From a virus, in the IMG/VR virus record IMGVR_UViG_3300045988_101878, positions 1 to 64,000 of that record: a stretch of 64,000 nucleotides of DNA; one strand, given 5' to 3'. Under the pieces are notes generated by a model. The model ran no database searches, was not told the origin of the DNA, and was given only the letters and a program-made list of their open reading frames with translations. The first letter of the stretch is position 1. Each line of letters starts with the position of its first letter. Shown one piece after another: positions 3,048 to 59,635 of the stretch. A program made the translations under genes and the position numbers.

Positions 3048-3698
3048 ATGAAGAAAATCATGTTCAACGACAAGTACCTCCTCACACAAGAGGTACTTAA
3101 AGGTCATAAGACGCAGACAAGGCGTATTCTGAATCCTACAATGTTTTTCGAGCGTTTGAACACGTACGAAGGCTGGACAAAAGAATCTATTGCTGATTGG
3201 AAGGAATATTGTAAAGACCGACTTTATAAAGCAGAGGGTGAAGAACTGAAAGAAATGCTTGATTACGCCTTGGAACATTCACTATACAAGGTTGGAGAAA
3301 ATGTAGCTATTGCGCAAAGATACATAGACCTTGTAAGCAATGATGAGTTCTATCGCCTTTGTGGCATTCATGGGATACCATTAGAGTGTATTAAATACGA
3401 GAAAGGTTGCAAAAACAAAATGTTCGTTAAAGCAAACCTTATGCCCCACCGCATCCGCATCACCAACATTCGTATCGAGCGCCTGCAAGACATCAGCGAA
3501 GAGGATTGTTTGGCTGAGGGTATCGTGGATTTTGAGAGCAGAATAAACAAGGCGCATTTTTACAGCATCACAGATGAATCTGCCACCTATGGGACAGCCA
3601 AAAAACCATACTCCCTGCTCATTGACAAAATCTGTGGTAAGGGCACATGGAAATCTAACCCTTACGTCTTCGTCTATGAGTTCGAATTAATAAAATAA
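3048..3698 (+). CDS. possible ASCH-like (PUA-fold) domain protein
   Basis: N-terminus MKKIMFNDKYLLTQEVLKGHKTQTRR resembles the K-T-x-T-R-R opening of many phage ASCH-type proteins (from memory, not searched). Start set at ATG 3048, just after stop 3040-3042. Confidence 0.4.
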   Translation: MKKIMFNDKYLLTQEVLKGHKTQTRRILNPTMFFERLNTYEGWTKESIADWKEYCKDRLYKAEGEELKEMLDYALEHSLYKVGENVAIAQRYIDLVSNDEFYRLCGIHGIPLECIKYEKGCKNKMFVKANLMPHRIRITNIRIERLQDISEEDCLAEGIVDFESRINKAHFYSITDESATYGTAKKPYSLLIDKICGKGTWKSNPYVFVYEFELIK

Positions 3699-3704
3699 CA
3701 AGCT

Positions 3705-3935
3705 ATGGGTTTAGAAAGAGTAAAGCAGCTTAGAAACGAATACGCAGAACAGCATATTATTTCAATTGAGCAGTTCGAGAAATTCCAAGAGCGTCTATAC
3801 AGCCAAGAAGCAGTTGTACCAGAACCTCCACAAACTCCTCAACCAAGCAGTACCTTCGACTATGCTCAAATGACACGTCAACAGCGTAGAGCATACGAAA
3901 GAAGACTTGCAAAGGAGAACAAAAGAAAATATTAA
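3705..3935 (+). CDS. hypothetical protein (76 aa)
   Basis: ORF in operon context with a basic C-terminus. Confidence 0.5.
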   Translation: MGLERVKQLRNEYAEQHIISIEQFEKFQERLYSQEAVVPEPPQTPQPSSTFDYAQMTRQQRRAYERRLAKENKRKY

Positions 3936-3954
3936 CAACATAACAAATACAACT

Positions 3955-4368
3955 ATGAACAAAGAAATGAAACAGTACATTGGTACTAAGATTGTAAAGG
4001 CTATGCCTATGACAATGACAAAAGCACAGAAAATGCTTGGTAGAGAAATAAAGCCTACAACCGTTGAAGAAGATGGCTACTTGGTAGAGTACAAGGATGG
4101 ATATAGGTCTTGGTCTCCTAAGAGTGTGTTTGAGGAAGCCTACAAGCCAGCCGAAACATTCTTGGATAGACTATCTATAGAGCAACATGAACTGACAGAA
4201 AAGGTTGATAAGTTACGTAAGTTCTTGTCTGTAGAAGATGCACAAATGAAAGTTGGAAGTTTTCAGTTTGTAAGAATGACAGAGCAACTTGAAGCTATGG
4301 AAAAGTACCTCAATATCTTAATTAGAAGAATTGATGACTTAAAAAATGAAGGTACGACTTGCAACTAA
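3955..4368 (+). CDS. conserved-looking phage protein: small N-terminal domain plus C-terminal coiled coil
   Basis: Start set at ATG 3955 (MNKEMKQYIGTKIVKAMPMT...). Followed by a 9-bp hairpin at 4386-4410. Confidence 0.55.
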   Translation: MNKEMKQYIGTKIVKAMPMTMTKAQKMLGREIKPTTVEEDGYLVEYKDGYRSWSPKSVFEEAYKPAETFLDRLSIEQHELTEKVDKLRKFLSVEDAQMKVGSFQFVRMTEQLEAMEKYLNILIRRIDDLKNEGTTCN

Positions 4369-5858: not shown

Positions 5859-5861
5859 CAT

Positions 5862-6233
5862 ATGAAAGCAAGATTAGCAAAGAAGATAATTAAGGCGAGT
5901 GGTACTTATTGTTTCTATTGTAGGAATTGCGACACTCACAGTAGATATAAGTATCATCCGTATTGGACAAGCCATTGGAACTACTATGGTTCTCGGATGG
6001 GAGACGTTCCCTCAGCAGTTTGGAAGTTAGACCAACGCTTGAATGCAGCTTTGCGACGGCTGCCTCAATATACACAGAAACTGTCGAGTGCTGTTGAGGA
6101 AAAGCTGATGGAGATAAAAAGAAACAGACTACACAAGATGTTGGAACGAGTAAAAGCCCGACAAAGCAGTAAGGAAGGGGGCAGTAATGGGAAGGCTGAT
6201 TTCTCAATATCCAGTAAGATGGAGAGTCTATAA
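5862..6233 (+). CDS. small basic protein, paralogue of 6380-6730
   Basis: Opens MKARLAKKIIK, compared with MKIRIAKKKLKK in the neighbouring gene. Confidence 0.5.
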   Translation: MKARLAKKIIKASGTYCFYCRNCDTHSRYKYHPYWTSHWNYYGSRMGDVPSAVWKLDQRLNAALRRLPQYTQKLSSAVEEKLMEIKRNRLHKMLERVKARQSSKEGGSNGKADFSISSKMESL

Positions 6234-6411
6234 CGGCAATCTGTTAGACCGGGAAGCGAGTCGTGAGCTTACCGTGCTCTGCCAAAGGCGCATGGAAGAG
6301 GAAAAGAGGAAGAGGGAGTTTGTTCCTTATAGGACTTACTTCCGCTCCTCAATGTTTAATATTATAAAATGGAAACGGTATGAAAATACGTATTGCAAAG
6401 AAAAAGCTTAA
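6187..6411 (+). CDS. doubtful small ORF overlapping both neighbours
   Basis: 74-codon ORF overlapping 5862-6233 by 47 nt and 6380-6730 by 32 nt. No independent support. Confidence 0.25.
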   Translation: MGRLISQYPVRWRVYNGNLLDREASRELTVLCQRRMEEEKRKREFVPYRTYFRSSMFNIIKWKRYENTYCKEKA

Positions 6412-6730
6412 GAAGGTATTATCTGAAGCCTATCGTATAAACAAAAGGCGTGTGAAACTGTCGAGGACGTATTTTGCTTTTAGAAGTGGATATGGTTATC
6501 GGTATCGCGACGGTAGTATTAATTATTACTTTATAAGAATACGAGAGAAAAAGAGAAAGAAACCAACAATTTTAACCAGAAGGAGTCTGCGTCGGTTCGT
6601 GAAAAATATGTTCAAGGCTGACGAAAGGAAACATGTGTCCGAGACAGAAACAATGGAAGAAGCATATCGTCAACCTCCAAGAACACGTAGATGTCGTAGG
6701 ACACATGGCAATGTCAATAACAGTAAATAA
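6380..6730 (+). CDS. small, very basic protein, paralogue of 5862-6233
   Basis: Shares the N-terminal MK-x-R-x-AKK motif. Arg/Lys-rich. Confidence 0.5.
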   Translation: MKIRIAKKKLKKVLSEAYRINKRRVKLSRTYFAFRSGYGYRYRDGSINYYFIRIREKKRKKPTILTRRSLRRFVKNMFKADERKHVSETETMEEAYRQPPRTRRCRRTHGNVNNSK

Positions 6731-6758
6731 TAAAGTACAACATTAAAAAACAAATAAT

Positions 6759-13474: not shown

Positions 13475-13497
13475 AATGTCTGCTTTAGGGCGTTAGC

Positions 13498-13526
13498 TTG
13501 GTGGGGCAACGCCCCACCTTATCTTC
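13498..13526. repeat. copy 1 of the conserved GC-hairpin element
   Basis: TTGGTGGGGCAACGCCCCACCTTATCTTC: 6-7 bp GC stem, 3-nt loop, conserved flanks. Lies 3 nt after a minus-strand stop codon. Confidence 0.7.
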
Positions 13527-13529
13527 GGC

Positions 13530-13622
13530 TTATTCTTCTTCCGTAAACTCCTTCCAATGTCTCCCCACATAGATTCCTGCCACATAGGAGACGACTGCCA
13601 ATGCTATAGTAAATTCAATCAT
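13530..13622 (-). CDS. possible 30-aa single-TM peptide
   Basis: Hand translation gives MIEFTIALAVVSYVAGIYVGRHWKEFTEEE. Its ATG overlaps the upstream stop (ATGATTGA). Confidence 0.3.
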   Translation of the reverse strand: MIEFTIALAVVSYVAGIYVGRHWKEFTEEE

Positions 13623-14862: not shown

Positions 14863-14901
14863 AGCTGTATAGTGTTAATGGTTATTGATATGTGCGAAGC
14901 C

Positions 14902-14930
14902 TTGGAGGGGCAACGCCCCTCCTTATCTTC
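14902..14930. repeat. copy 2 of the conserved GC-hairpin element
   Basis: TTGGAGGGGCAACGCCCCTCCTTATCTTC. Lies 2 nt after a minus-strand stop codon. Confidence 0.7.
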
Positions 14931-14932
14931 TG

Positions 14933-15088
14933 TTAGTTCTGCCAATACACAACATAATTGTGTTCCTTGTCACTCAGATTGGACAATCTTGCATAGTCGT
15001 GCGCGTCCTTTGCATCATCAAACCACGCTACTACTGTTGGTAATGTGCTACCACTCTTGTACTGTTTTGTTACGATAAACTTCTTCAT
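14933..15088 (-). CDS. possible small protein (51 aa), below the ORF-track cutoff
   Basis: Hand translation gives MKKFIVTKQYKSGSTLPTVVAWFDDAKDAHDYARLSNLSDKEHNYVVYWQN. Confidence 0.35.
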   Translation of the reverse strand: MKKFIVTKQYKSGSTLPTVVAWFDDAKDAHDYARLSNLSDKEHNYVVYWQN

Positions 15089-15680: not shown

Positions 15681-15995
15681 ATGAGAATAGAAGAAATACT
15701 AACAGAAAAAGGCATGAGTAAGGCCGCGTTAGCCGAGAAAATGAATACTTCGCGGCAGAATATAAATTCACTTTTAAAAAATCCATCAGCAAAGAAAATC
15801 GAAGAATTTGCGGCGGCGTTAGATGTTCCCGTATGGCAATTGTTCGCTTCTCCTGCTGAGGTCACAAACATTCCTCAGGAGACCAACGCAGAGTTTGCAG
15901 CCTTCATCCGCTACAAGGGCATCCATTACACGGCTGACTCTCTGGAGGAATTCAATACAATCGTGGAAGAGATAAGAAGTATAACTAATAATTAA
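15681..15995 (+). CDS. XRE/cI-type helix-turn-helix regulator (104 aa)
   Basis: MRIEEILTEKGMSKAALAEKMNTSRQNINSLLKNP is a classic HTH_3 pattern. Start set at ATG 15681. Confidence 0.75.
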   Translation: MRIEEILTEKGMSKAALAEKMNTSRQNINSLLKNPSAKKIEEFAAALDVPVWQLFASPAEVTNIPQETNAEFAAFIRYKGIHYTADSLEEFNTIVEEIRSITNN

Positions 15996-16531: not shown

Positions 16532-16578
16532 TAACTACTTTCATGGCGTTATCTCCGCGAGGGGCAGGGCGGCAGCCC

Positions 16579-16605
16579 TTGGGGGCGGCACGCCCCCTTA
16601 TCTTC
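16579..16605. repeat. copy 3 of the conserved GC-hairpin element; likely also the terminator of 16004-16531
   Basis: TTGGGGGCGGCACGCCCCCTTATCTTC: 7-bp GC stem followed by a T/C-rich tract. A second small hairpin GGGCggcaGCCC lies just upstream. Confidence 0.6.
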
Positions 16606-16903
16606 CCCTTGTTCCTCTCTCCTTCTCCTCCAATATACCCAACCTCTCCCCATAGAGAGAAAACACCCTCATTAGTCTCTCGTTAGCTGGACAACAGTAA
16701 GGGGAGTAGAATAACCTGAGAATCCTCCAATTTGATTAGGCTGTAAGCGTGATTTGTGCGTTTGCAGCCTTTTTTCGTGCAAGCGATTGGCTTGTTTTGG
16801 TCTTTTGAGGTTGATTTTGCGTGTTTTTCCGCTTGATTAGGTGTTTTTACGATATTTATCGAGTTTCCTTTTGTTCTCTTCTCTTCTTTTGAGTAAATAT
16901 CTG

Positions 16904-17082
16904 TGCAAATATTGTCTTTCTCATGCGTACATCTTCATGTCCTGGACTGTTCATATTTTCCTTTAATATTTGCCTTTGTCTCAAAAATTACGGGGGTTAG
17001 ACCGCTTTGACTGTTCAAAAAGTCGGTTTTTGGATAGAAAACGCCCGACAAAGGGATTGGTGTGAAAAATGCAAATATTGTC
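16904..17082. repeat. pair of exact 13-nt direct repeats, TGCAAATATTGTC
   Basis: Copies at 16904-16916 and 17070-17082, centred on the palindromic core AATATT, within AT-rich non-coding DNA. Confidence 0.6.
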
Positions 17083-17222
17083 CTTGGACGAAATACGGTA
17101 AAATTCATTGGATTTAGGTGTACCTTTGGGCGTTCTAAGTCGTTCTTTGGCTTGTTTTCATGGCTTCTCCTTCCTTCGGGATGGGTTCGGGATTCGTTCG
17201 GGACGTGGCATGAAGGCAGAGA

Positions 17223-17345
17223 TTATACCACATGGGAGGAGACTTTATACCACATGGAGGTGGACTTTGCACCACAAAGGGCAGGATTTTGTACACAAAG
17301 GGCAGGATTTTGTACCACATGACTCGAAAATCGTACCAAATGAAC
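17223..17345. repeat. iteron-like tandem array (about six units of 21-23 nt)
   Basis: Units: TTATACCACATGGGAGGAGAC / TTTATACCACATGGAGGTGGAC / TTTGCACCACAAAGGGCAGGAT / TTTGTACACAAAGGGCAGGAT / TTTGTACCACATGACTCGAAAA / TCGTACCAAATGAAC. Confidence 0.7.
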
Positions 17346-17496
17346 AGTAAAATGGGCATGTGACCCTTGTGGGGTCAGAACCCAAGGAGATATAAGACTG
17401 AAAATCAATCGGTTATGCGTGTGGTATGGAAGAAAGTAGCACAAGGGTAATACTTTTTGATGATTGGACGTGACTCCGTGGCTGTTGGCAGGTGGA

Positions 17497-17572
17497 AGGT
17501 GGAGGATGATGGGCGTGACGAGGTGGAGAGCTGCCATGAGGATGCAGGTGGATGATGATAGGAGCGACGAGG
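17497..17572. repeat. two 27-nt direct repeats inside a purine-only tract
   Basis: AGGTGGAGGATGATGGGCGTGACGAGG (17497-17523) and AGGTGGATGATGATAGGAGCGACGAGG (17546-17572). Confidence 0.65.
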
Positions 17573-17704
17573 AACGATGTGGGAGACGAGGCAGGGACAG
17601 CAGGGGACAGGCACAGACGAACCCAAACCCCCACCCCCCTTAGGTACTGGATGCAAATTATAGTAGATAAAAGCATAGGTGTAAATGTTGCTCTGCCAGG
17701 AAAA

Positions 17705-17817
17705 GGTACTACCGGGAAAGGAGGTCATTGTCATATTCCCCACAAAAAGGTACTCCGACAAAAGGAGGTATTGCTTGCACCCCTACCCCTTAGGTACTCC
17801 GTGAAAGGAGGTCGGTT
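17705..17817. repeat. three about 25-nt direct repeats at 44-nt spacing, immediately upstream of the first structural gene
   Basis: GGTACTACCGGGAAAGGAGGTCATTG, GGTACTCCGACAAAAGGAGGTATTG and GGTACTCCGTGAAAGGAGGTCGGTTG. In addition, the exact 13-mer CCCCTTAGGTACT occurs at 17636 and 17786. Confidence 0.7.
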
Positions 17818-17858
17818 GTGGTTATAGGATTTATGTTGAACATTAAAACTTGCAAGAT

Positions 17859-18563
17859 ATGTTTGAGATTGGAAAGAAGTTTAGGTTGCCGTTAGGCGTT
17901 AGTGAGGTTTCGGGCGCGAAGAATCCGATGATTGGGTTGCTGAGTGCTGCGAGCCTTGGTTTGAGTGTTGGCAGTTCGCTGTTCGGCGGTTTTAAGGCTC
18001 GTAAGGCTGCAAAGAGGGCTTTGCGTGAGAATCAATACCGCATGAATGCTGAAAAGGCTTGGTATGACAAGGAGTATAACACGGACTACTTGGACACCAA
18101 GGCAGGACAGAACTTGATGCGCAAGGCTCAGGAGGTGCAGGACAGTTACATTCGCAAAGCTGATGGTGCGGCTGCGGTTGGTGGCGGTACGGCTGCGAGT
18201 ACGGCTATGGCAAAGGAGGCTGCCAATAGGGCTATGGGCAATACTGTGGCTAATATTGGTGCGAATGACACGGCTCGTAAGGCGAGTGTTTCGGATCAGC
18301 ACATGCGTAACGAGAGCAATCTTTCTCAGCAGAGGGAGGCTATCTACAATCAGCAGGCTCAGAATGTGAGCAATGCGGCACAGAATATGAGTAATGCGAT
18401 GGCTGCGGCAGCTTCTGGTTTGGATGGTGCTCCTAAGAGTGGTCCGTTGATTGTGGACGTTGGTAGTGCTGAGGCTAAAGCAGCTGCTCAAGGTTCGCTT
18501 GTCCCAGAGATTGACGAGAAGTCGGCATTCGACAAGCGATTGAAGAACGTGACTGGTGTTTAA
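17859..18563 (+). CDS. Ala/Gly/Asn-rich protein with an N-terminal hydrophobic segment; possible internal virion protein
   Basis: Start set at ATG 17859 (the track used TTG 17850). MIGLLSAASLGLSVGSSLFGGF, then an Ala/Gln/Asn-rich helical sequence. Role is inferred from position only. Confidence 0.55.
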   Translation: MFEIGKKFRLPLGVSEVSGAKNPMIGLLSAASLGLSVGSSLFGGFKARKAAKRALRENQYRMNAEKAWYDKEYNTDYLDTKAGQNLMRKAQEVQDSYIRKADGAAAVGGGTAASTAMAKEAANRAMGNTVANIGANDTARKASVSDQHMRNESNLSQQREAIYNQQAQNVSNAAQNMSNAMAAAASGLDGAPKSGPLIVDVGSAEAKAAAQGSLVPEIDEKSAFDKRLKNVTGV

Positions 18564-20614: not shown

Positions 20615-23600
20615 ATGGCAATAGATAGAAGTAAGTTGCAGAGGATGTACAAGCTTATGGCTGACAACGGCTATACCCAGGACTATAATACATTCGAGAA
20701 GAAGTTTACTGGTGACAGCAATTACGCCAACAGAAAGGCTGTGTACGACCTGTTCACAAAGAATGGTGCTGACTTGGGAGGCTCGTATGAGGAGTTTATG
20801 CGCAAGTTGCAGAAGCCAAGAGCGACAAAGCCTCAGCAGCAACCAAAGACCGCATTAGGCAGGGCACAACAGAGCGTGGCGCAACAGAAATGGGGAGGCT
20901 ATGGTGGTGCTGTGACTCCAATGCAGAATGACAGCGAGCTTGTGCGCGGATTGAAGAATGCGGACGCGGCACAGAGGTTGCAGGTTCCCGTGAGCTATGC
21001 AAAGCCGGGTGCTGTGAAACAGATGGTGAAGCAGACAAGGGAGAGACAGCATGTCGTTGGGCAGAATGTGGAGCAGGCAGGACGTAGAACCATGCAGCCA
21101 TTACGTGAAGAAGAGAAGAAAAACAGAACACCCGTTTTTGATACTGGCAACAAGAATCTGAACCAGTATGTGGTGAACACGCAGGGACAGATGGAGCGTC
21201 AGATGATGGACAGCGGACGTGAGATTGCAGGTGATCATCTTGGAGACTATATCTCCTACAATATCCGCAATGAGTTTGACGCTGCTGCCAAGAGAGGACT
21301 GGAGGCTGAGTCAGCCTTGAGCAAGGCTTCACCATTCGCCTCTATGGTAGCTGGCAAGGCTTACAACGATGCGCTTGACCCCGATATGCTTATAAAGAAT
21401 CTCTCCAAGAAAGCGGAGAGCGATATGGCAAACATTCTCTCAGACCCGAAAGTGCTTGAGAATATTGGCGTTAAGGCGGCTGCCTATGGTGTTGACCCAG
21501 AGGAATATGTAAACAAGATATTCGCTCCTGGCTTGCAAGCAAAGATAGCCGAGGAGTTTGAGAAGAGCGAGCTGAGCCGTAATATGCCTAAGAGTACGGC
21601 AGAATACATCATCCGCGGTGTTAATGACTCGATGATTGGTACTATCTTGTCAATGAGCATGATGTCAAAGAAGCAGAGACAGTATGCTCAGCAAGGAATG
21701 GCAATGACCGATAACGGCGAGAATCCTGATGTTAACCCGAATATGGGCGCAAGAGTGGCACGCGGAACATTGAGCTTTGTTGCTGATGCTCCTGTATTTG
21801 GTGCTGCTGGAAAGGCAGGTGCTGCTGTTGCAGGAAAGGTATTCGGCAATGGAGTGGCACAGATGGCGAGAGTGGCAAATTCTTCTTTGGGTGGACGTAT
21901 TGCTCGTATGGCAGGTTCTGGAATGGTGAGCCAAGGCGTTACTGGTGTGCTTTACGGTTCGACGAATGCGGCTGTACAGAACTACTCTACTGGCGACGAC
22001 ACTTCTATTGGCAATACCGTGAAGCTTATGACTATGGGCGGCGTTTCGGAAGGCGCAAGTTGGGCCACTATGGGTGGCATTGGCGGTGCTGTTGGAGGAA
22101 GCCTGTATAATGTGAGTGGTTTTAAGCGCATTCCTGCCAAGGTGTTCCAGATAGCGATGGAAGGCGTTGGTATGCACATGGGTGGTAATGTTGCCAAGAT
22201 GATAGAGGGTCATGATACCGACTGGCTGAGCGTAGAGGGGAACCTTGAGGCTTGTGCCAATGTTGTAGCCTTGAAGCTGACACACGCAAGACTGCCTAAG
22301 CGTTATGCGAAGGACGGCAAGAAGGAAAGCTATCTTGGCATGGTGGCGAGAAATCTTTATAATCTTACTGTCTCGGACAGACAGAGAACTGCCCTTGGTG
22401 GATATACTTTCACCAATGAGGAGAAAGAACAGCTGTTCGGGAGCGCGAATGCGCCAAGGAGAAAAGAATATACCTACGGATATGATAAGTATGACGTGCC
22501 TTTGACAAGAAGTGAAAATCTTATTGATTGGGCATTGAGAACCAAGAAGACAACAGCCAGAGGAAAGGGCGAGGAATCTTATAATGGCACGGACGCTGAG
22601 TTTGTGAAGACTGCCTATGACGAGATAATGGCTGACAATACCATTCCTTGGGACACAAAAGCTAAATTCTCGGCTTTGGTTATGGGAACTGTTCCTTCGG
22701 CACGTCCGATGATGGACCATATAGCGATAGAGCGTGACGAGAGAGGAGCGTATGTGGGTGAATATAGCCTTTATGGAGAGTTGCTCTCAAAGAACCGCTA
22801 TAAGACAGCCGACGAATACGTTTCAATCAAATACAATCTTGGGGCGAAGAAAGAAAACCAACGTTTGAGTAATGCCTATGGTGCAGCTCAGATAAAGGAC
22901 GAGAAGGCGGCACAAGAAACATTGGAGACTGTAGCTGAGACGTTTGGCTTTACTGCTGAACAGTTGAAGGCAGCTATGGACAAAGACCCGTTGAAGCGCA
23001 GCGAGGAGGAACAGAATGCTTGTGTGGCTCTGAGAAAGGCTTATGAGGGAGAGCAGTTCCCGGAAGGAACGTTGCATCCCGACCAGTCGCAGACAGAGGG
23101 CAAGGACGTGGTTGAGGAGAATAACCTTGGCACGGAGAATCCTAACAACGAGGCTGTGGCTGAGGTGCTGAACAACATGAATAATGCCGAAAAGGCGTTT
23201 AATGCAGCCTTGGAAAGCAACGATGTGTTGAAGCAGGAGTATGAGAGACTGGCAAAGGAGGGTCTTTCGGAACCTCAGATATACATGGAGCTGTTTAATT
23301 CGGGACTGACGCAGGAACAGCTTGCACCTTTTGCCGACTACATCAACGCCAAGGCTAAGGCTGTGGGCATGTATCGCGGAACTGAACAGAAGATTGCTGA
23401 GACCGTGCAGAAGCATGTGGAGCAATGGAGCTACAAGGGCGAGCTGAATGGCGAGAAGCAAGAGGGCGGTCAGATGGTGTTCGTGAAGGACAACAAGGGC
23501 AGACTGCTGATTGTTGGAGCGGGCGATGTTGCCTTTGATAATGATGGCAGAGCGAGAGAAAGCGTTGGCGACATGCTTAGCGTGCTTGATGCTGAGAAGG

Positions 23601-26600
23601 GAGAAATGGACTTCGTGAGCGTTAAGGACGTGAAACTGGAGCGCACTGTGGCAAGCGAGGAGTATGCAAAGGAATACCAGGAACTGTTGGAGGTTAAGAA
23701 CTCTGAGGTGTATGCTCAGAATGAGCAGCAAAAGCAGATGGAGAATGCGGCAGGTGGTGTGACACCTGAAGGTGGAAAGCCGGAACAGCCGATAACAGAG
23801 CAGGGCAACGCAGAGACTACCGTGCAGACTGGCGAGGCAAACAAGCCTGTGCGTACATTTGCCGATGGCTCACCTGTGCCCATGACAAAGGATTCGAAGG
23901 GTCGCGAGACTGCTGCCTACTCGATGATGACTCCAGAGCAGGGAGCCGAGTGGATAGAAAAGACATTCGGAGAGGATGCTGAGGCTGTGGCAGACGGTAA
24001 GATTGAGCGAGCCAAGAAGGATTTGAGCAAAGCCGAGAAGATGGATATAGACATGACCGCTGACGATGCGGACGTACTGGAGGCTAAGACCAAGAAGAAG
24101 GCTGCTATTGAAGCTGCCCAAAAGGAGCTTGAGCTTTACACCAACATCAAGATGGCGATGGTGGAGAAGAAGGTGAAGGCTACGATGGAGAAAGAAAATA
24201 CTGTAGGTGAGGTAGATAGTGCAAGTCGTGTTAGTGACGCCGTGCGCGAGAAGTTCGAGAAATCAAAGAAGATTCCCGGACGACGTGGTTCTATCACTCT
24301 TCCTGATGGAACTAAGATAACTGGTCAATACTTTTATGGCGAGGTTTCAGGACTTACACCTTCGCACGATCCGTTTAATGACTTTAAGCAGAACGAGGGA
24401 TTCCCAGTTAATGAAGACGGCTCTTCCTCAAACTCACGTTCTTACAAAGACAAGGAGTCGCGTCTGTTTACAGAGAAAATTGGCAGAGACTTTGGCGGGC
24501 AAGCACTAAAGAATGTGCCAGTTGTGCAGGATGGTATTCTGTTAAGCGGAAATGGCACGACTATGGGTAAACAACTTGCGGAACGCTATGGTACTGACGG
24601 CAAGTATTATGAGAGCCTAAGTGAAAACGCAGAAGGCTTCGGCTGGACTCCAAAGCAAATTGAAGAGGCAGGCTTTAAGGGTACTGTATATTTTGTACCC
24701 GACAAAAAGATGCCACTTACAAGTAAGACATTTGACCTTTTCAACAAGCAAGAGACAAAGAGCATTGGCAATACAGAGCAGTCGGTAAAGAATGCCAAGG
24801 TGTTAGACACGGACGAGATTAGTGCCATCGTGTCGGAGATAGAAGGAAGTGGCAGTCTTGACGCATTCTTTAACAATCCTACTGCAATAAACTCGTTGCT
24901 AAAGCGTTTAATTGATAAGGGCGTTATTGGCTTGAACGAGGTAGCCGGATTGCGCGAGGGCGAGAACAAACTTTCGGCTTCGGGCAAGGACTTTGTGAGA
25001 AACCTGCTGTTGGGCAGCGTGTTCTCGGAGGACACTATCAGAATGATGGGTGCAGACGCAGGTTTGAAGTCGAAGGCTCTGAATGGTATACGTGCCGTGC
25101 TTGACAATATGAAGCTTGGCGACTATGCCCTTAGAGGCGAGATTGACAAGGCTGTGCAGTTGGTATATGAGGCACGTCAGCAAGGTGGCGACGTGGATGC
25201 TTATTTGCGCACTCCTGCCATGTTCGGAGAAAATGCGGCAGATAGATACGACCCAATATCACAGGCTATAGCTCTTGCGCTTGACGGCAAGGCTGAGGAC
25301 TTCCGCGATTTGATGATGGCATACAACCGCAATGCGGCACATTATGCCGATGCTAATCAGTTGGACGTGTTCGGCGACCGACCTACAAAGGAGGAGTTCA
25401 TTAACGAATTTTTGAAACTTAGAAACTGGAAGAACTATGAAACAAGACGTTCAGAAAATGAAGGAAATGGCGATGTTGGCGGCACTCAAGGAAGTGAACC
25501 AGAAACGTCAGGAGGAAATGAACAGACAGAAGGAGAAGGAGTAACGCCTACTGGTGCAGGCGCGGGTTCGCCTATGGACCCAGACAGATTTGACCGAGCT
25601 GTTGAGCAGCTAAAGACTGCCAAGGGTGAGGAGCGTGAACGTATACTCGACCAAATGGAAGAGTATGTGAATGAGTTTGCCGAGAGCAATGGATATGACA
25701 AGCCAGTTGTGCTGAGAACAAAGAAGGACTTGGCGGATGCGGCGAAAGACCCAGACGACAAATTCGCAATAGAAAATATGCCAGATGATGCCCATAATCC
25801 TGGTTATTATGAGGATGGGAAAATCCATATATATCTTGAAGGCAGTAGAGGTTCTAAAGAGTTGCGCGAGACATTTGAGCACGAGTCGGTTCATGCTGAC
25901 AATGATGCAGACCCTTCAAGAGTGGAAATGCTCATTTCTTCCGTAAACGAGACTGGCGAGATAACATTTGAAGAATTAGAAAAAGTTGTTGAGACTTTAT
26001 CTAACTCAGACCGTTATTCATACCTTGCAGAAAAGCTGGATTACAACGATGGATTGCGCATGTTGGCAGATGAAGCCTTAGCGCACCTTGTTGCACATGC
26101 TTATAAAAATGGTATAGATGCGATGTCGGATATAACTAAGAATTCTACATTACTCTATATAGCAAAAAAATCATTTAAATTTAGAGAAAATGAAAGACAG
26201 CGACAAGAACGAGAATCAATTAGTGGAAGTACTGAGCAACAGCGGAAGAAAGTCGATGTTCAGCCTACACAAGAGCACAGTGGAACTGTGGGAGAAAATA
26301 ATGAAGGAAAATCCGGAGTTGTCACAGATGCAAGCATTGGGACAGGCATTCGTGATAATGAAGGAGAAGGAGAAACAATAAATGACAGAAGAAGAAAAGA
26401 AGGACTTGCAAAGAGTGGAGATAAGACACTCGAGCGGAAGAATCTCGATGATGTATCTACCGAAGAAAACGGTGGAGCATTGGAGGGAGATAAGGAAGGC
26501 AAACCCGAAAATGACAATGGAGGAAGCCCTGATAGAGACATTCAAGCAGGAGAAGAACAGCGAGAAGTAGAAGAAAAAGCAATATTTGAACAGAGAAAGG

Positions 26601-29600
26601 CTGAATATCTTAAAGCCTTGAAGGAAGGTAAGACTGGCAAAGAACTTGAAAATGCGAAATTGCATTACAAGTTTTCTTTCTTGGACTACCAAAATATAAT
26701 GGGCGTAACTGACGCTGAGTCGCTTGAAAAATTATGGAAGAGGGAGCTTGAATCGGCAAAGGATTCTAATGGTATTGGAAGTGAAGAGGCTCTTGCCATT
26801 CTTCCTAAGAAGGAAGAGAAAACGTTTGATCCGATTGGTAAGGCTGCGGAGAACTACAAGAAAGACCATCCTTTGACAGATGAGGAGATTAGGAGTAGCG
26901 ATGTGGACGACATTGCAAAGGATATGGCTGTAGATTATCTGAATGGCGAGGTGACGGATGATTTGCATCGTGCCGTTTATGAGAGCATCTATGAAAAGGT
27001 GAAGGATGCGAAGATGAAAAACGCCACTAAGCAAGCGGATAATAAAACAGAAACTACCGAAACTCCTAATGTGGAAGCCTCAGCAAGCCCTATTGAGGGA
27101 ATGAAGAATGCTGCCGAGAAGTTTGCTAAAGAGAAAGAGGCTGCTGTAGAAGCTATGGGCGAAGTGAAGAAGCCTCAGCAAAAGGCTGACGATGCAGCTG
27201 TGGAAGCGTCGAACAAGAAGGTTAACGACCTTTGGAACGACTTGCTGAAAGCAGGCAGAGAGGATTTGTCGGCATCATTCATCGGACTTAACGCAAGACA
27301 GCTTGAAGTGCTGCCTAAACTTGTGAGTGCAATGGCAGAGAACGCTTACCTAAGAATAAAGAGAGGTATGCACAATCTTGAAGACGTGGTAAAAGAAATG
27401 CGCAAGGAGTTTGCTCCAGCAGCCCAGGTGTTCAAGAAGGAAGATGTGGATGCCATCTACGAGCAGATGATGAACATTCGCTATCGTGACGGCGAACAAC
27501 GCATGAGCTTGAAGGAATGGGCAGACTACTACGAGAAGATTTCACCTAAGCACAAGGAGGAACTTGTGGGCGACTCCAAGGAGGCAGAAGAGAGAAAGAT
27601 ACGCGAGAAGAAATTTATAGACAAAGTGAACCTTCGTCTTGGTTTCGGACAGAAGATTAACGGCATCGTAGAGCTGAGAAAGATGGCAGAGGAATGTGGA
27701 CTGAAAGACGTGAAGGACACGGACTTGCAGGAACTTGCCGAGACAGCCATCGTACAGAGAGCGAGAGGTATCGCTTCTTCGGAGTCAACCAATAATACCG
27801 AGAAGTTCAAACGTATAAAGAAACTCTACGAGAATCAGCCGAGCCTTAATCAGCGTGACTCAGAGAGAGTGATGAAGCAGCAGTATTCCACACCTGCTCC
27901 TTACGCATTCCTTGCAGACATGTATGTGAAGGCAGGAATTGAAGTAAAGAGCGCATTGGAGCCAAGTGCCGGAAACGGAATGCTGACAATAGGCTTGCCT
28001 AAGGATGCGGTACATGTGAACGACATCGACGCACAGCGACTTGCCAACTTGCAGAGACAAGGCTTCAAGAACGTAACAAGCCAAGACGGAACACAGCCGT
28101 TTGCGGACAAGGACGTGGACGTGGTTGTGACAAACCCACCATTTGGAAGTGCCACACCAAGGGATTATGACGGTTATACTATCTCTTCATTGGAGGGACA
28201 GATGGCTATCAATGCCTTGGAGAGCATGAAAGACAACGGTCGTGCAGCCATCATCATCGGCGGCAAGACGGAATACGCCAAGAACGGAAGTCTGAATCCA
28301 AAGGATAAGGCTTTCCTTGGTTATCTCTACAGCCACTATAATGTGGAGGACGTGATAAACGTGGATGGAAGCCTGTACGCAAAACAGGGCACAACATACC
28401 CGACACGCATTATATTGATTAACGGACGACGCTTTGACGAGAATGCCTATCCGCCAGTTAAGGACAAGGCAAGAGCGGAAGCCGTGAAGAGTTATGACGA
28501 ACTTTATAAAAGAATAAACGATGATATACTACGAAGTGGAAGGATGGATTCTCCCGTCGGAGAAGGAGGAGAAGATGCTAACGCAAAACCTAATAGACCG
28601 AGCGTTGCTGACGCTAATGAAGAGGGAGTACGAGCAGGAGGAAACGGAGGAGGCGAACAAAAGCCTTCAGTTCGTACTGGAGGAGTACATGACAAGACTG
28701 CCGAACCAGTTTCCGACAATGTATTGGGGACAGAAGGAGGAACCAAGCCAGGAGAAAATGGAGGACTTCCTGATGGAGCTATTGGAGCAAACGGAGCAGG
28801 GACAGAGCCTACTTCAAGCAAGGAACCAACCACTGGAACCAACAAGCAGCGAGGAAATGAACCAGGAGGAAATGGACGACCTAACACTCAGCCAAATGCT
28901 GATGAAACTACCGATGCCGGGAACGGAGGGAGACCACGGGGACAACTGGAGCGGGTGGACAAACCCGTACGTGGACTAAGTGCCGAAAAGGTTGCTTATA
29001 CGCCAAGAAGTGAAAACCCGTTCACTCTTAAAGCTGTTATGCCTGCCGACCAACAAGAGGCAGTTAATAAGAACCTCGAAAAACTGGGTGATGCAGACCA
29101 ATTCTTGGTTGACGAACTGGGCTACAACGATAAAGCAGACCTATACGCACATCTTGCAGCAGAGCAAGTAGACTCAGTAGCTCTCGCTTTGCAACAGGCA
29201 AAGAAAGGCAATGCCTTTATCATCGGTGATATGACAGGTATTGGCAAGGGTAGACAGGCAGCTTCGCTTATCAGATACGCCAAGAACCAAGGACAAGTGC
29301 CAGTATACTTCACAAAGACAGCAGGTTTGCTGAGTGACGTATATCGTGACTTGGTAGACATAGGTAGCAAAGAATTGAGACCGTTTGTATTTGGAAGCGC
29401 AAAAGAAGCTGCCATTACAGACGCTGACGGAAACGTAGTATTTGCACTACCTTCGAAGAATGAAGTGAAGCGCGTGCTTGACTATATAGAAAAGAACGGA
29501 GAACTACCAAAGGAGTATGATTACGTTCTGACGACATACAGCCAAGTAAGCAACGGCGTATATGAGTTTGACGAGAATGGCAATCGTAAGGAAAGGAAAT

Positions 29601-32600
29601 TAGCCAAAGGCAAAAAGTTTGGTGCAGCAGCAATCAGCGGACAAGCCCGACGTGACGCTATAGAAAAGCTCATGAAGAACGGCTATCTGATATTGGACGA
29701 GAGCCATACAGCAGGAGGTGACAGCGGTCAAGGCAACTACTTCCAGCACATCATTCAGAAGGCAAAGAACGTGACCTTCTTCTCTGCAACCTTCGCAAAG
29801 CGTCCCGACAACATGCCAATCTACGCGCTAAGAACGGCAATGAACCAGGGAGGAATGAAAGCATCCGACTTGATAGACGCCGTGAAGCGTGGAGGAGCCA
29901 CACTACAGGAAATCATGAGTCAGGCGCTGACCCAATGCGGACAGATGATACGTCGCGAGCGAGACATGACAGGCGTGACTATTGACTGGAAAGCCATTGA
30001 CGACCCCGAAGTTGTTGCCGAACAGCGCGAGCAGTATGACAGCATCATCGGTCTGTTCAACGACATCATCAACTTCCAAAGAACCTATGTAAGCGCATAC
30101 GTAGACAGACGTAATGAAGAACTTGCAGAGGTGCAGTCGTCGATGGGCATAAAGCGTGGCACAGAAGCCTTGGGAATAAAGAACCAACCGTTTGCAAGCA
30201 AGGCATTCAATACTGTGCAACAAGTGCTTCTCTCGCTTAAAGCAAAGTCGGCAGCAGAAAGAGCTATTGACTACTTGAAGCAAGGCATGAAGCCTGTGAT
30301 AGCATTGAACAATACCAACGAGTCGCAGACGGGTAACCTTGCGCTTGGCGAAGAAATGGACGCTCCCGACTTGGGCACATCACTAAAGAAAGGACTTGAA
30401 GGTACGCTTCGCTATACGAGCAAGAACGCTAAGGACGAAAGCGAAAGCGGATATATTAATCTGAAAGACTTGGGTGCAGATGCCGTTGAGGCATACCATG
30501 CTCTTGAAGAAAAGATAAGAAAGACAAGTACCGGACTATCGCTCTCGCCTATCGACGTTATTAAGAACGAACTGACAAAGGCAGGGTATAAGGTAGGCGA
30601 GTTGACTGGTAGACAGACAGAGTTTGTGTATAACGAGAACGGCACGGTAACGAAGGTGAAGCGTGCGGACACAGACAAGAAGAAACTTGCGAGAGAGTTT
30701 AACGACGGACAGATAGACGCGCTAATCTTGAACAAGAGTGCGGCAACTGGTATATCACTCCATGCTTCAAGCAAATATGCCGACCAGAGAAAACGAGTTA
30801 TGATTGTTGCCCAGCAGCAGCTTGACGTGAACGATGAGGTGCAGATGCGTGGACGTATAGACAGAACGGGACAGGTGGCAAGAGGCGCATACGAATACGT
30901 TGTGTCGCTTATCCCGGCAGAGCAGCGACTGTTGATGATGTTCAAGGCAAAGCTGAAATCATTGGACGCAAACACCACTTCTTCACAGAAGAGCAAGTTC
31001 AATGAAATGGAAGTAGCCGACATTACCAATAAGTACGGAGACAAGGTGGTGAAGGAATACATGGCAGAACACCTTGACTTGTATGCACGTATGGCAGACC
31101 CATTCGGATGGGAGAAATCTTATGGAGCAGACTTATCAACAGTAGACCCACAAAAGTTGGTTTCTTCTTCTGACGGCATGAATAGTGAGGCTGGAGGCGA
31201 CGCTAACAAGTTGCTTGGCCGTATGGCTTTGCTGAAAGTGAAAGAGCAAGAGAAGATGTTGCAAGAGATAGGCGACCTTTATGCAGCCGAGATACAACGT
31301 CTGAACGAAATGGGCGAAAACGACTTGGAGATAACAGAGTTGCCTTTGAAAGCTAAGACCTTAGACAGGATTATTTGGAAGGAAGGTACAGAACCAGGCG
31401 GCGACAATGCCTTTGCCGACAATACTTATATAGAGAAGGTGAATATGGCTGTACTGAAAAAGCCGATGAAAGCGGAGGAGGTAAAGAAAGCTCAGGACGG
31501 ACTCACGGGCGGCAAGTCGTGGGACGAATACCGCAAGGAGAAGCTAACCGCTGCAAAAGAATACTTTGACAAGAAGATAGCCGAAGCTACTCAGAAATAC
31601 GAGGAGCGTGCCGTTAAGGCTGCAACAAAGGTAAAGGAGAAGTATATCAAGGAAGCAAAGAAGGGTCAGAAAGAAACTGGCGTGAGCGACGAGCAGATTG
31701 AAAAGACTGCTGGCTATCAGTACGAAAACGCCTATAACGATGAGAAGACTAAGCTTGACGAAGTGGTGAAGAACCTCAAAGCGAAGTATGGCGTATTTGA
31801 GCGTGCGCTTGAAACATTCAACACAGAAGACGCATTTGTACTGCCAACAGACATGAACAATCCCGCTGAGTTGAGCGGATTCGGCAACAGCTATGGCAGA
31901 CTGATAGACATAAAGATAACTGACAACTTCTCGCCAAACGCCTCAACAATATCGTTCGCCACATTGGACGGACGAAGAAAGATAACATTCCCTATAAACG
32001 GAAAAGCAGGACTCGGAATCGACAAGGTTGATGTTATAGAAATTATTGACAGGCAGACAAGGCAGGCATCGTCGTTGGGTGACAAGAATCTACGTGTATT
32101 GAGTATGGATGCCTCCAACTGGGACAAGCTGACAAGCAACGAGAGCCGTAAGGACGGATATATCATTACCGGAAACTTGCTGCAAGGCTTGATTGACACC
32201 AAGGCAGAGTTCTTGGGTGCTCAGTTAGTGAAATATACAACAGATACAGGTGAAGTCAAAACTGGTATTTTGTTATCTGGTAATGTAAAACTGAAAAACC
32301 TTGCCAACGAGAAGCCTATTAATAGCGTAGCTGAAAAATTTGAATTGCCATCTAACAAGGGTGGCATAACAGAGGTGACATCTTCGGACGGAGACGTGAA
32401 GATAGAGCAAAGTTCAGTTTACACAAGAGAGGAATCTAACTATAACATCCGTGTTCCAAAGAGTAACAAAAAGGGAGGCAAGTATTTCCTTGATAAAGAG
32501 CTGCTGCAAATGGTTGTTGGCGGTAACTTTGAGACAAGAGGAAACACGATGTTTGCCCAGATAAAGACTGGAAAGCTAAAGGATGTACTTGACAGACTTT

Positions 32601-35600
32601 CGGAGCTTGGCGTAAAGGTAAAGGAAGAAAGCAAGGTGCATTACCGCATGGAGCTTGGCAACACCTTCTCAGACAGCAAGGAACACTTTGACGCTGTGAG
32701 AGACAGAGCTGTGGAGGAGAAAGGAATCGTTATGCCTAATCTGAATAAGGAGAAGGTGAAGGTGGTAGAGGTTGAGAAATCTCCCTTTGGTGACAATATT
32801 GAAACTTCTTTAAAAAATGCCAGAGAATGGGCAAAAGAAAACCTTGTAACAACGGGAAAGACAGAAATGCCTATTATGCGCGATGGTACATCTTATACAA
32901 TCAGCAAAAGGGCTGTTGAAAAATATCTTTCAGAAAGTGCTGTTCGTAAAAGTGAGAATCTTGACATTCATCTTTCGGTACTTCCCAAACTTACAGATGT
33001 TGTCCATGAGAGCATTGAAGCAGAGATACACCCGGATTACAAAAAGGGTGAAGACGGAATACGTGGTATTGAGAATGGATATGGTGAAGGTATTTTAGTA
33101 CATAGACTTTATGGCGCAGTAGAACTGGACGGTAAGATGTATCGTGTTAAGACTACTATGCAAGAGTTCAGAGGTGGGGAAGAAAACAAACCTCATAGCT
33201 ATGAGGTAACAAAAATAGAGCTGCTTGACTCCCCTGGAAAGCGAGAAAATCCCGACAGACCACCTTTGGTTTCATCAAACAACTCTAAAAATATAACGTC
33301 GGAAGGTTCCGAGAAAGCGAACGAATCCGACAGTCTCCCTTTGAACAGTGCAACCAACGGTTATATTTCAACTGCAAAGTTACTGCAAGGAGTTGAGAAA
33401 TCCTACGATTCGGGCAAGAAATTGCTTGATGAGAGTAAAGATTTAACAGATGGGGAGACTTTCTTTAGAAAAGAAGGCGATGGTGTTGTAACACCTGAGA
33501 AGACTTCGAATGCTATGAGCGAGCGTATCATCAAGACCGTTGAGAAGGTTGCCAAGAGAACTGGAGGCAAGGTGAAGATGGTGAACTCGGTTGAGGAGAT
33601 TGAGAACCCGAAGGTGCGCAAGGACATAGAGAACGGCAAGCAGGTGACTGGCTGGTATGACGAGAAGACGGGCGAGGTGCATCTGTATATGCCGAACATC
33701 CATGACACGTATACCGCGGAGAAAACCGTTTGGCACGAGACTGTAGGACACAAGGGCATGAGAGGTTTGCTTGGAGATAAGTTTGACTCCTACATGAGAG
33801 ACCTTTGGATGGACTTGGACAACCCTATCAATGCTGAGCTGAGAGCTTATGTGAAGGAAAAAATGAACATGAATCACCTTGGATTCTATGACGCTATTGA
33901 GGAGTTTATCGCCAAGAGCGCAGAGGACGGAAAGGGTGAGCCTGGCTTCTGGAACTACATTAAGAATAAGGTAACAGATGCCCTGCATGAGATAGGCTAC
34001 AGAGTTTCGCCTAACGTGAAGGACGTGAAGTATATGCTGTGGCTGGCGAAGAACGTGCAGAAGCATGGAGACAGTCCGCTGTGGAAGCTGAGAGCTGAGG
34101 CTGTGAGGTGGAAGATAGAGCATGAGAAGACGGAGTACACGAAGATTGAGGGCGGCGAGCTGTATGACAACGACGGCAAGAGCCATGACTTCGAGAGCAT
34201 GAGCCGCGAGGAATGGCTGGAGGCAACGGACGGAGAGATACACTACCGCACGACTCCAAGCGCTGCTACCGCTTTGGACAGATACCATCATGCCCTGGAC
34301 CGTCATAGCTATATGGCTACGGAGGCTTTCATGGACAATATGCTCTCGTTGAAGAAACTCATGGAGGCTATTGATCCATCTATCAGAAAGATAGAAGATG
34401 TGGCAAGCTCGATGAACCCATATCTGATGCAGAATATCACGGAGGGCAAGATGAGCGACAAATCCAAGCTCTTCGAAATACGCTATATGGACCCGCTTAG
34501 CAAGGCTATGTCGAGCGTGTTGGACAGCTTCGATGGCAAGAAGGTGGAGGACAGAATAAGGAACTTCAATCTGTATATGATTAGAAAGCATGGATTGGAG
34601 AGAAACCGTGTGCTGTTCGTGAGAGACAAGATAAGGGAAGAACGAAAAGTGAAGAGTGAAGAATCCAATAGTATTGATGCTTTGGAGACTGCTTGGAAGG
34701 GCGAAAAATACGACCTTAGAAAGAAGCTTGACTCGGGACAGATAGACTTGAAGGAGTACTACCGTCAGATGGACGAGTGGATTGTAACGAACTTGGACAA
34801 GGACTTTAAGGCTGAGGAGCATGACTATTCGGGTATGCACGGCTTGCAGGGTATTGCAGACAAGAAAGCAGCTTATGATGATGCCGGAGCTATTGACGAG
34901 GTAATGAGCCAGGAGGCGAGCATGGAAAGCATGAAGAAAGGCTCAGTTGCCGACTTCTGGAAGAAGGTGAAGGCAGCTACTGATTATTCTGTAAATTCGG
35001 ACTATGAGAGTGGACTGATAAGTCAAATTACACACGACGGAGTGTTGGGCATGTTTGACTGGTATGTACCGTTGAGAAAGTTTGACGAGGCTACCGCTGA
35101 GGACGTATACGGATATGTGACAGAAATGGGCGACCCAAGCAACTATATCGGCACGACGCTGATGAACGCCAAGGGACGAAAGAGCCTGAGCAATGTGGAG
35201 ATATTGGCACAGATTGGCTTAATGGGCAACCGTGCGATAAGAAACGGAGGTCAGAACACTATAAAGCAAGCCTTTGCGCGATTCGTGAGAAACAGCGGAG
35301 AGCAGAATCTTGTGAAGGAGACAAAGGTTTGGGTAGAAAAAATAGGCACAGACAGAAACGGTAACGACATTTGGGAGGAGGCTTATCCGAAGATTCCCGA
35401 AGGAGCCGAAGCTGATGAAGTTGCAGAAATTGTGGATGCCTTTGAAACGGACATGAGGGCCAAGCAAGCTAAGGGCGAGGCAAAGAGTCTGAGCAACAGC
35501 ACGGACATCGGCTTCAAGTTCCAAAGAGCGAAGGACAAGAGCCAACACTTTGTGGACGTGAAGATAGCAGGAAGAACACACAGATTTGTGGTGCTTGGCA

Positions 35601-43987: not shown

Positions 43988-44276
43988 ATTTCACCTCCTT
44001 TGGTTCTGTTGATGTAAAAATCTTAATACCTACGCTTTCGGGTAATACAATAATGCGAAGTTTAAAAATCCTCATATCCTTGTGCCTTTTAATCGGTACT
44101 CTTGGAAATTTCCCGTCTTGCGTACGTTGTCTAATAACCAACTTGCCGGGTTTATTTAGTGTTACCATCAGATATATATCCCTCTTTAATACCACCTCCG
44201 CTGTTTCCCACGCAAGTTCCTCCTTGTTGTAGATTGCTGTTAGCTTCTCCATATAGTTACTGTTGTTTATTGCCAA
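43974..44276 (-). CDS. hypothetical virion-module protein (100 aa)
   Basis: ORF overlapping both neighbours by 14-20 nt in the same operon. Confidence 0.5.
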   Translation of the reverse strand: MAINNSNYMEKLTAIYNKEELAWETAEVVLKRDIYLMVTLNKPGKLVIRQRTQDGKFPRVPIKRHKDMRIFKLRIIVLPESVGIKIFTSTEPKEVKYAYI

Positions 44277-59548: not shown

Positions 59549-59635
59549 CTTTATTGTAATTAGTTATTAATGCGCGTGCAAAATTACTAAATATCTGTAA
59601 AACAGCCAAAATATATCATAAAAACGTAAACCAGT

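Follow-up and report, generated by a model that had tools for sequence, protein, structure and literature searches.

We examined positions 16532-17858 of the virus record IMGVR_UViG_3300045988_101878, a gene-free stretch in front of the late operon of a phage, and sequence comparison supports well its reading as a conserved composite control region that joins a putative terminator-insulator to a putative late promoter. The stretch as a whole probably serves as the control region of the late operon, combining insulation from upstream transcription, a phage-specific late promoter and a long untranslated leader before a giant gene. The window studied here is the first 64 kb (64,000 nucleotides, nt) of a 75,225-bp viral contig, whose ends overlap by 119 nt and thus give a circular assembly. 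Late-transcription control was among the functions proposed for the stretch in an earlier note made from the letters alone, and it is supported by a conserved promoter class and by the presence of terminators. The parts of the region, and the two downstream genes that matter most for its interpretation, are the following:

16567-16605, plus strand: twin GC hairpin, GGGC-GGCA-GCCC and then GGGGGCG-GCA-CGCCCCC, with an invariant TTATCTTC tail; a multi-copy element
16598-16700, plus strand: C-rich, G-poor tract of rut-like composition, directly after the stop codon of the upstream cassette and the hairpins
16738-16776 (13-bp stem and T6) and 16779-16799 (6-bp stem and T4), plus strand: tandem terminator-like hairpins, from a terminator scan
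16800-17085, plus strand: T-rich upstream region with conserved islands, recognised by identity across relatives
17086-17128, plus strand: predicted late promoter, made of the box GGACGAAATACGG, 22 nt and the -7 element TACCTTTG, with a predicted start near 17135
17175-17345, plus strand: variable tandem arrays, an 11-nt unit TTCGGGATGCG repeated 2.6 times and then 22/21-nt units repeated about six times
17361-17377, plus strand: conserved hairpin TGACCC-TTGTG-GGGTCA, with a nearly invariant stem and a variable loop (fold z-score -2.2)
17420-17620, plus strand: purine-rich, C-poor tract with stops in all plus-strand frames (C/G 0.24-0.32, about the 1st genome percentile; purine fraction 0.68)
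17628-17685, plus strand: C-run CCCCCACCCCCC and then the AT-rich core TTAGGTACTGGATGCAAATTATAGTAGATAAAAGCATAGGTGTAAA (core at 17640-17685, about 45 nt), once per genome
17696-17815, plus strand: three 44-nt units, (A)AAGGTACT-N5-6-AAAGGAGGT, with a perfect Shine-Dalgarno (SD)-like sequence in each
17859-18563, plus strand: gp14-like gene, first of the late operon, for a protein like the T7 gp14 internal virion protein (Pfam PF24072, E 2e-5, under the curated cut-off)
20615-37552, plus strand: giant gene of 5,645 aa, the largest of the phage, called a polyvalent protein; two genes lie between it and the gp14-like gene

Relatives were collected by a protein search with the gp14-like gene, which gave 19 loci, and by searches with the exact core, which gave about 35 more contigs; the exact core occurs in 34 and about 20 further viral contigs, about 55 related contigs in total. 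Nearly all of these come from a single metagenome (3300045988), and two or three others (3300014039, 3300013901, 3300013936) are also represented. All relatives have a gene-poor gap of 1.1-1.3 kb or, in one clade, of about 0.8 kb together with a separate module. Their leaders split into five clades with only 51-59% identity outside the islands, across which the order of the parts and several sequence islands are preserved. Unconserved filler, which the earlier note had set in advance as the finding that would overturn its reading, is therefore not what the relatives show, since both architecture and sequence islands are conserved.

A promoter class shared by the late operons

The element TACCTTTG at 17121-17128 fits TAnnTTTG, the described -7 consensus of Bacteroidota (PMC6847099). 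The same element is found in every relative, with TA and TTTG constant and the middle two bases variable (TACC, TATC, TATT, TAAA, TACA and TATA). In place of the usual -33 TTTG there is a 13-nt box, GGACGAAAYACSG, at an unvarying distance of 22 nt. The standard Bacteroidota pattern TTTG-N17-23-TAnnTTTG has no site in the region, the -33 position itself falling in the spacer that follows the box. Because the box takes the place of the usual -33 element, we infer that a phage-encoded or phage-induced factor would be needed for initiation.

In the form GACGAAANACNG, the box occurs four times in the genome against 0.135 copies expected (17087 and 48871 on the plus strand, 48853 and 64735 on the minus strand). 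All four copies are intergenic and face operon starts, and three of them are followed 22 nt further on by TAnnTTTG. A search of 13 related complete genomes with GAAAHACSG-N20-24-TAnnTTTG returned 29 matches, distributed over 12 of these genomes and always with a spacer of exactly 22 nt, while the reversed control pattern returned none. Such regularity gives good support to GGACGAAAYACSG-N22-TAnnTTTG as a phage-specific promoter class for late operons, as far as can be judged from sequence. Promoters of the same class also head the portal/terminase operon, the virion operon and the lysis-side operon. These other three lie about 30 nt before their first gene, whereas the one described here lies about 730 nt before the ATG at 17859.

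The T-rich region upstream of the promoter contains the island TGCAAATATTGTC at 16904 and 17070, with an inverted copy at 16965, as well as ACGGGGGTTAGACC at 16990-17003 and GCCCGACAAAGGGATTGG at 17043-17060. Distant relatives are 95% identical at 16980-16999 and 80% identical at 17040-17059, and the islands are probably binding sites of a regulator. In one relative (locus L018, positions 3130-4070) a duplication of about 1.7 kb has placed a second hairpin, upstream region and late promoter, along with the first 130 nt of the leader, before a cassette of a helix-turn-helix (HTH) gene and a gene of 176 aa; the junction of this duplication is the conserved TGACCC hairpin. Because the upstream region was duplicated together with the promoter, it is probably part of the regulatory apparatus of the latter. 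A search for an inversion of the T-rich block in clade E found no significant homology in either orientation.

Putative termination signals and the gene-free stretch

Left of the promoter, the sequence is suggestive of layered termination, intrinsic and, judging from composition, Rho-dependent, which would insulate the late operon from upstream transcripts. The hairpins at 16738-16776 and 16779-16799 both combine a G+C-rich stem-loop with a U-tract, as intrinsic terminators do. Together they fold at -28 kcal/mol (z -3.9), a stability that none of 200 shuffled sequences reached. In clade B the same position holds another hairpin sequence, again with a T-run. The C-rich tract before these hairpins is a putative Rho-loading site: at 16601-16680 it offers the roughly 80 nt of untranslated, little-structured sequence with C well above G that characterise rut sites, and its C/G ratio of 6.6 over this 80-nt window is the highest in the 75-kb genome. 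In 18 relatives the equivalent 90 nt contain 24-37 C versus 3-10 G.

The twin GC hairpin lies at the left edge of the region, where folding of 16540-16640 gives -39.1 kcal/mol (z -2.4). At least 41 variants of it occur in the relatives; their stems change compensatorily, as counted from GC, AU and UA pair types, and their TTATCT tail is invariant. Further copies lie at 13488-13535 and 14895-14935 in the same orientation, and relatives likewise have several copies per genome. All copies are oriented like the late operon, even within leftward-transcribed clusters, have a tail of the form (C)TTATCTYC and border on variable gene cassettes. One-way termination or cassette exchange could be their role. 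The cassette upstream of the region consists of an HTH gene (15681-15995), preceded by the promoter-like GTGTACCTTTG at 15650, and a gene for a 175-aa membrane protein ending at 16531. The HTH protein is of the XRE/Cro type (104 aa), has its own promoter-like GTGTACCTTTG element and is absent or replaced in several relatives; it is a candidate regulator.

No credible open reading frame (ORF) is present at 16532-17858, in agreement with the earlier note. The longest stop-to-stop frame of the plus strand has 95 codons and stops occur in all plus-strand frames; the longer frames of the minus strand (up to 138 codons) fall within the C-poor stretch. We scored coding potential with a dicodon model trained on the long genes of the same genome, a crude measure by which every ORF of the region reaches at most 0.20, versus at least 0.51 for the training genes. 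Because near-identical relatives differ by indels of 1-2 nt in the region, no reading frame is preserved. A gene hidden by an alternative code was also considered and rejected, as reading TGA, TAG or TAA as sense opens no convincing frame. The same applies to a frame that crosses the core in all clades, which has no conserved start and in which changes just beyond the core alter the residue. The stretch had also been called the only long one without an ORF; it is indeed the longest gene-poor stretch of the window, but not the sole one, as 5859-6758 and 58566-59668 are also uncovered by the dicodon score. Each of these measures 0.9-1.1 kb without a well-scoring ORF, and so does the attP region at 66020-66998, beyond the window.

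The switch from pyrimidines to purines that had been noticed along the plus strand is pronounced, with a purine fraction of 0.35 at 16801-17000 (0.4th genome percentile) and of 0.68 at 17401-17600 (98th percentile), and with a GC skew of up to +0.54 in the region. The suggestion that transcripts diverge from about 17050 finds no support: the sole credible promoter is directed to the right (17086-17128), and the left half, rich in pyrimidines, lies 3' of a plus-strand gene. As for the repeats described earlier, we located the GC hairpin at 16581-16597, the exact 13-mer pair CCCCTTAGGTACT at 17636 and 17786, the 22/21-nt tandem arrays at 17209-17319 and the three units of about 25 nt at 17696-17815. 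Purine repeats of about 26 nt are present at 17486 and 17532, but as a family they are weak, being only 73% alike. GACGA is slightly enriched in the leader, with four occurrences against 1.3 expected.

The leader and its invariant core

From about 17135 to the ATG at 17859, the predicted leader measures about 730 nt. Its arrays are found nowhere else in the genome, except for a 15-mer with two mismatches inside the initiator gene. Relatives have other arrays with an 11-nt period at the same position, the copy number of which differs even among near-identical genomes. These fast-evolving arrays are in helical phase and probably serve as sites for a DNA-binding protein. A 34-nt segment of the leader (17170-17203, TTCGGGA repeats) is 94% identical to a Leyella stercorea contig (C234:12154-12187), which could reflect a second prophage or chance.

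The composition of the purine tract is common to the five clades despite little shared sequence. Compared with dinucleotide shuffles, folding is weaker for the whole leader (z +1.7), its minus strand (+1.6), the core (+1.6) and the SD-like units (+2.0). The leader RNA is thus predicted to be open and C-poor, a compositional mirror of the C-rich tract 5' of the promoter. The constraint on the leader is real, and its mechanism, as set out below, is what we infer from these features.

Within the core, positions 17660-17679 are 100% identical across clades. The core is unique in this genome and is not enriched in the host genome (six matches versus seven for a control). In clade B the C-run beside it is replaced by its own reverse complement, an inversion of 11 nt. 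On the minus strand, 17657-17685 reads TTTACA-17-TATAAT, a near-consensus sigma-70-type sequence (11/12) inside the core, the -10 hexamer of which is present in all five clades; an RNA polymerase of Bacteroidota would not be expected to recognise TTGACA/TATAAT promoters. Reading of the core sequences by eye revealed no match to a sigma-54 or a standard Bacteroidota promoter.

The SD-like units follow the core. Three of the five plus-strand copies of AAGGAGGT in the genome lie within 90 nt in the leader, where 1.6 copies would be expected genome-wide. SD-like sequences of any kind precede only 3 of 32 gene starts of the phage, and none precedes the start of the gp14-like gene. The units are predicted to be unpaired, and 198 of 200 shuffled versions of the stretch gave a more stable fold. 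They are present in four of the five clades, two to four per leader, and absent in clade E. As real ribosome-binding sites they were rejected: no start codon accompanies unit 1, and the ORFs that follow units 2 and 3, of only 9 and 25 codons, are not conserved. Ribosomes of Bacteroidia are SD-blind, bS21, bS18 and bS6 sequestering the anti-SD, and ribosomes without bS21 regain SD recognition (PMC7797042, PMC9976891). Elsewhere in the phage, a minus-strand gene of 185 aa (43430-43987) stands apart from the other genes in having a perfect extended SD, AAAGGAGGTGA, at 43988-44003, 4 nt before its ATG.

The universal module consists of the purine tract, CCCCCACCCCC, a 15-nt spacer, GCAAATTATAGTAGATAAA and further C-runs. 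In clade E (locus L019 and about 20 contigs) the late promoter lies about 30 nt before the gp14-like gene, and the purine tract, the C-runs and the core come after this gene, before a slot whose gene varies between genomes. Because clade E has the module after the gp14-like gene, the module would act within the transcription unit, at a point ahead of the giant gene. Small ORFs occur between the module and the gp14-like gene in two relatives, MENKIAKIVDKFGADKVM... in L013 (about 5880-5990) and MENIVTRIVDKVGTDKVM... in L022 (clade D).

These features suggest the following course of events. Transcripts from the upstream cassette would be stopped by the twin hairpin, then by way of the Rho-loading tract and then by the two hairpin-plus-U terminators. 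The late promoter would initiate near 17135 with the help of a phage-encoded or phage-induced factor. RNA polymerase would then cross the leader of about 730 nt, where low C, high purine content and little structure would keep Rho off the ribosome-free RNA and leave that RNA open. It is tempting to add that the module is a new cis-acting RNA element of Bacteroidota phages that secures the 17-kb gene, either by loading a Rho-resistance factor or as a standby platform or sponge capturing 30S subunits with a free anti-SD (bS21-less), but we regard this addition as quite unlikely.

Several observations weigh against the interpretation as a late-operon control region with a leader acting as RNA. 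The start site, the terminators and the leader RNA itself are predictions. The TTATCTTC tail of the twin hairpin is a poor U-tract, and copies of this hairpin lie inside leftward-transcribed clusters, for whose genes they are not obvious terminators. A terminator scan of the leader found no intrinsic terminator for an antiterminator to override, and neither RNA structure nor covariation was found in the module, which leaves an RNA-level mechanism without structural support. A DNA site would agree equally well with three of the features, namely the inverted C-run of clade B, the arrays phased to the helix (11 and 21-22 nt) and the single-copy core, and the invariant core may indeed be a DNA site rather than an RNA element. 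Finally, the Bacteroides phage BS-TP4 and its relatives, the nearest cultured phages, do without the long leader, which is thus not essential for such an operon.

The phage, rival explanations and known systems

The contig encodes a P22-like portal, a divergent large terminase (gene at 53346-55484), a tyrosine integrase, an HTH repressor, RecT and a DnaC-like loader. The exact invariant core is also present in the genome of Leyella (Prevotella) stercorea An906, a lysogen available in culture. A prophage of this species has a 79%-identical integrase beside tRNA-Lys(UUU), and the phage homology begins inside the 3' end of the tRNA (C188:1-3910). Because this prophage with its integrase sits in the tRNA-Lys of L. 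stercorea, the element is, on sequence evidence, a temperate podophage of Prevotellaceae of the P22-portal type. The junction between phage and host corresponds to about 66,246 of the phage (about 66,230-66,250), and attP therefore lies in a 980-nt gene-free gap that extends from the integrase to the repressor, beyond the window. A role as attP was rejected for the region studied here, which is intact inside the L. stercorea prophage, the junction being instead in tRNA-Lys, at about 66.2 kb. Among GenBank phages we found no nucleotide match to the region and no match to the gp14-like protein; only three match by their portal, at 34-37% identity (Bacteroides phages BS-TP4, BKO1-TP3 and BF1-TP2). 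BS-TP4 (PQ571277.1) also has a gene of 5,391 aa. Its GenBank record breaks inside the gp14-like gene, which is unannotated at the right end of the record, with a terminal overlap of about 90 nt.

Of the other functions that could be given to the region, a packaging site, also named in the earlier note, is unlikely. The core with its flanking C-runs and repeats would then be a pac or cos site at which terminase starts packaging, and the promoter and terminators mere neighbours. As would be expected of pac or cos, the core is conserved and present in a single copy per genome throughout the approximately 55 related contigs, and it is identical across five clades that are otherwise 51-59% identical. 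Repeated motifs flank it on both sides, and packaging sites flanked by repeats are known from P1 pac and lambda cosB. The lack of RNA structure in the module and the inverted C-run of clade B fit a site in duplex DNA, and the P22-like portal and the 119-nt terminal overlap are as expected for a circular or circularly permuted genome. However, the core lies about 35 kb from the terminase gene, whereas pac of P22-like phages usually lies in or beside the small terminase gene. The placed ends of linear relatives fall on the integrase/attP side and not at the core (near attP in G002 and G018, at the neighbouring late promoter in G003), and they are uninformative on virion ends. About equally unlikely in our view is that the leader, apart from promoter and terminators, has no dedicated function and represents a recombination-prone mosaic junction, whose conserved blocks are kept by exchange among co-circulating phages. 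Recent exchange is plausible, as nearly all relatives come from metagenome 3300045988; the genes adjacent to the module vary, with small ORFs inserted after it in L013 and L022, and the 1.7-kb duplication of L018 has its junction in the conserved hairpin. The differences in array copy number among near-identical genomes and the cultured Bacteroides relatives without a leader point the same way. Against a mere junction, the leaders of five clades, of other metagenomes and of an isolate genome agree in their length, in the order in which the parts follow, in strand composition and in the core, while the flanks show near-random identity, and a directional avoidance of structure and of C is not expected of neutral junk.

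A replication origin, also proposed in the earlier note, is disfavoured, and we consider it very unlikely that the arrays and the AT-rich core form one, or form a second initiator-binding cluster like P4 crr or P1 incA. The array periods of 11 or 21-22 nt do correspond to one or two helical turns, and the AT-rich core is near the arrays, about 300 nt away. The promoter could activate an origin by transcription, its G-rich non-template strand could favour R-loops, and the 21-nt leader units of this genome resemble a 21-nt repeat, present twice, inside the initiator-like gene. However, the replication module (an SSB-like protein, a 123-aa initiator-like protein and the DnaC-like loader) lies at about 74.7-75.2 kb and 1-924, and the relatives have lambda-type iterons (11 nt, three to four copies, two clusters) inside the initiator gene, beside the DnaC-like loader and about 16 kb away. 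These iterons read AAGTAAACAAC or CAAACGGACAC in the relatives (loci L088-L100), and the repeat of this genome, 21 nt repeated 2.1 times, is at 27-70 of the window (75,133-75,176); phages that are otherwise alike carry a shuffled set of initiator types (123-223 aa). Array type did not match initiator or loader type in the 25-36 related genomes typed: clade B1 leaders occur with types I-b and I-c, and TGTCCAAG arrays with types I-b, I-c, I-d and I-e. The 10-mers shared by each leader with its own replication region are at chance level, the core of clade E is combined with an unrelated type of replication module, and cumulative GC skew has no turning point at the region. It is just as improbable that the region encodes structured non-coding RNA, whether a large phage-associated RNA or small RNAs, a proposal of the earlier note that found no support. 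Compatible with it would be the length and conservation of a non-coding stretch that follows a promoter, the hairpins formed locally at 17361-17377 and within the arrays, and the sigma-70-like TTTACA-17-TATAAT on the minus strand of the core. Searches of the window and of five relatives with Rfam release 15 gave no match (nothing at E <=1 in the region, nothing at gathering score in the relatives), and no tRNA or tmRNA was found. Both leader strands fold worse than shuffles (the z-scores given above range from +1.6 to +2.0), and partition-function folds of ten module sequences gave structures that vary by clade, with no consistent pairing in the core; covariation is confined to the hairpins on the terminator side.

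Our preferred interpretation, a control region of the late operon, can be set beside better-known systems. Like the late regions of lambdoid and P22-like phages (PR', a leader of about 200 nt and tR'), it combines a dedicated late promoter, an untranslated leader and a very long structural operon with terminators that would insulate it from upstream. It differs from them in a leader that is three to four times longer and has no terminator, and in a promoter of the Bacteroidota -7 type with a novel box, which is common to four operons while the leader is found in one only. The placement of the cis module, which clades A-D have in the leader and clade E behind the first gene, recalls nutL and nutR of lambda and putL and putR of HK022, which lie in comparable positions. 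Unlike in these, the search of the module revealed no covarying structure of the boxA/boxB or put kind, and no Q-, N- or NusG-like factor was identified. Hairpins that would mask the SD-like sequences (CUCC-loop-GGAG) were considered as put/boxB-type structures and rejected, being weak, not present in all units and without covariation. Membership in the nut/put family is not supported, because neither covarying hairpins nor a terminator to override were found.

The promoter shares the conserved -7 element with Bacteroidota housekeeping promoters (-33 TTTG and -7 TAnnTTTG), here and in the 29 sites of the relatives, and differs in having GGACGAAAYACSG at 22 nt instead of the -33 TTTG, which would place it in a separate class. 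A unique site with an invariant centre, flanking repeats and an adjacent promoter at the head of a structural operon resembles P1 pac, lambda cosB and SPP1 pacL/pacR; unlike in those, the terminase gene is about 35 kb away and the repeats differ between clades while the centre is constant. Arrays in helical phase near an AT-rich block, with units resembling a repeat of the initiator gene, bring to mind lambda ori in gene O, P4 ori/crr and P1 incA; in contrast to such iteron origins, this group has its true iterons within the initiator gene, and its leader arrays show no co-variation with initiator type. For the SD-like units the parallel is rpsU of Flavobacteriales, whose strong SD is read by ribosomes lacking bS21 (PMC9976891, PMC7797042). 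Both have a perfect extended SD, AAAGGAGGT in the phage, in a group whose ribosomes normally ignore it. Unlike rpsU, the phage has two to four tandem copies in an untranslated leader, without a properly spaced start or before tiny ORFs only.

The region is, as far as these comparisons go, a variant of known phage late-control regions, with an invariant core and with tandem perfect SD sequences in an SD-ignoring host; the core would be either a packaging site or an expression element for a giant injected protein. To our knowledge, there are hardly any studies of how phages of Prevotellaceae and Bacteroidaceae regulate their genes, and the promoter class, present at three to four late operons per genome in about 12 related genomes, offers a handle for finding the late activator. 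Both compositional extremes of the genome stand back to back in this region, which would fit a logic in which transcription is first stopped by Rho and then protected from it. Should this be confirmed, Bacteroidota would offer a clear case from nature of Rho control encoded in base composition.

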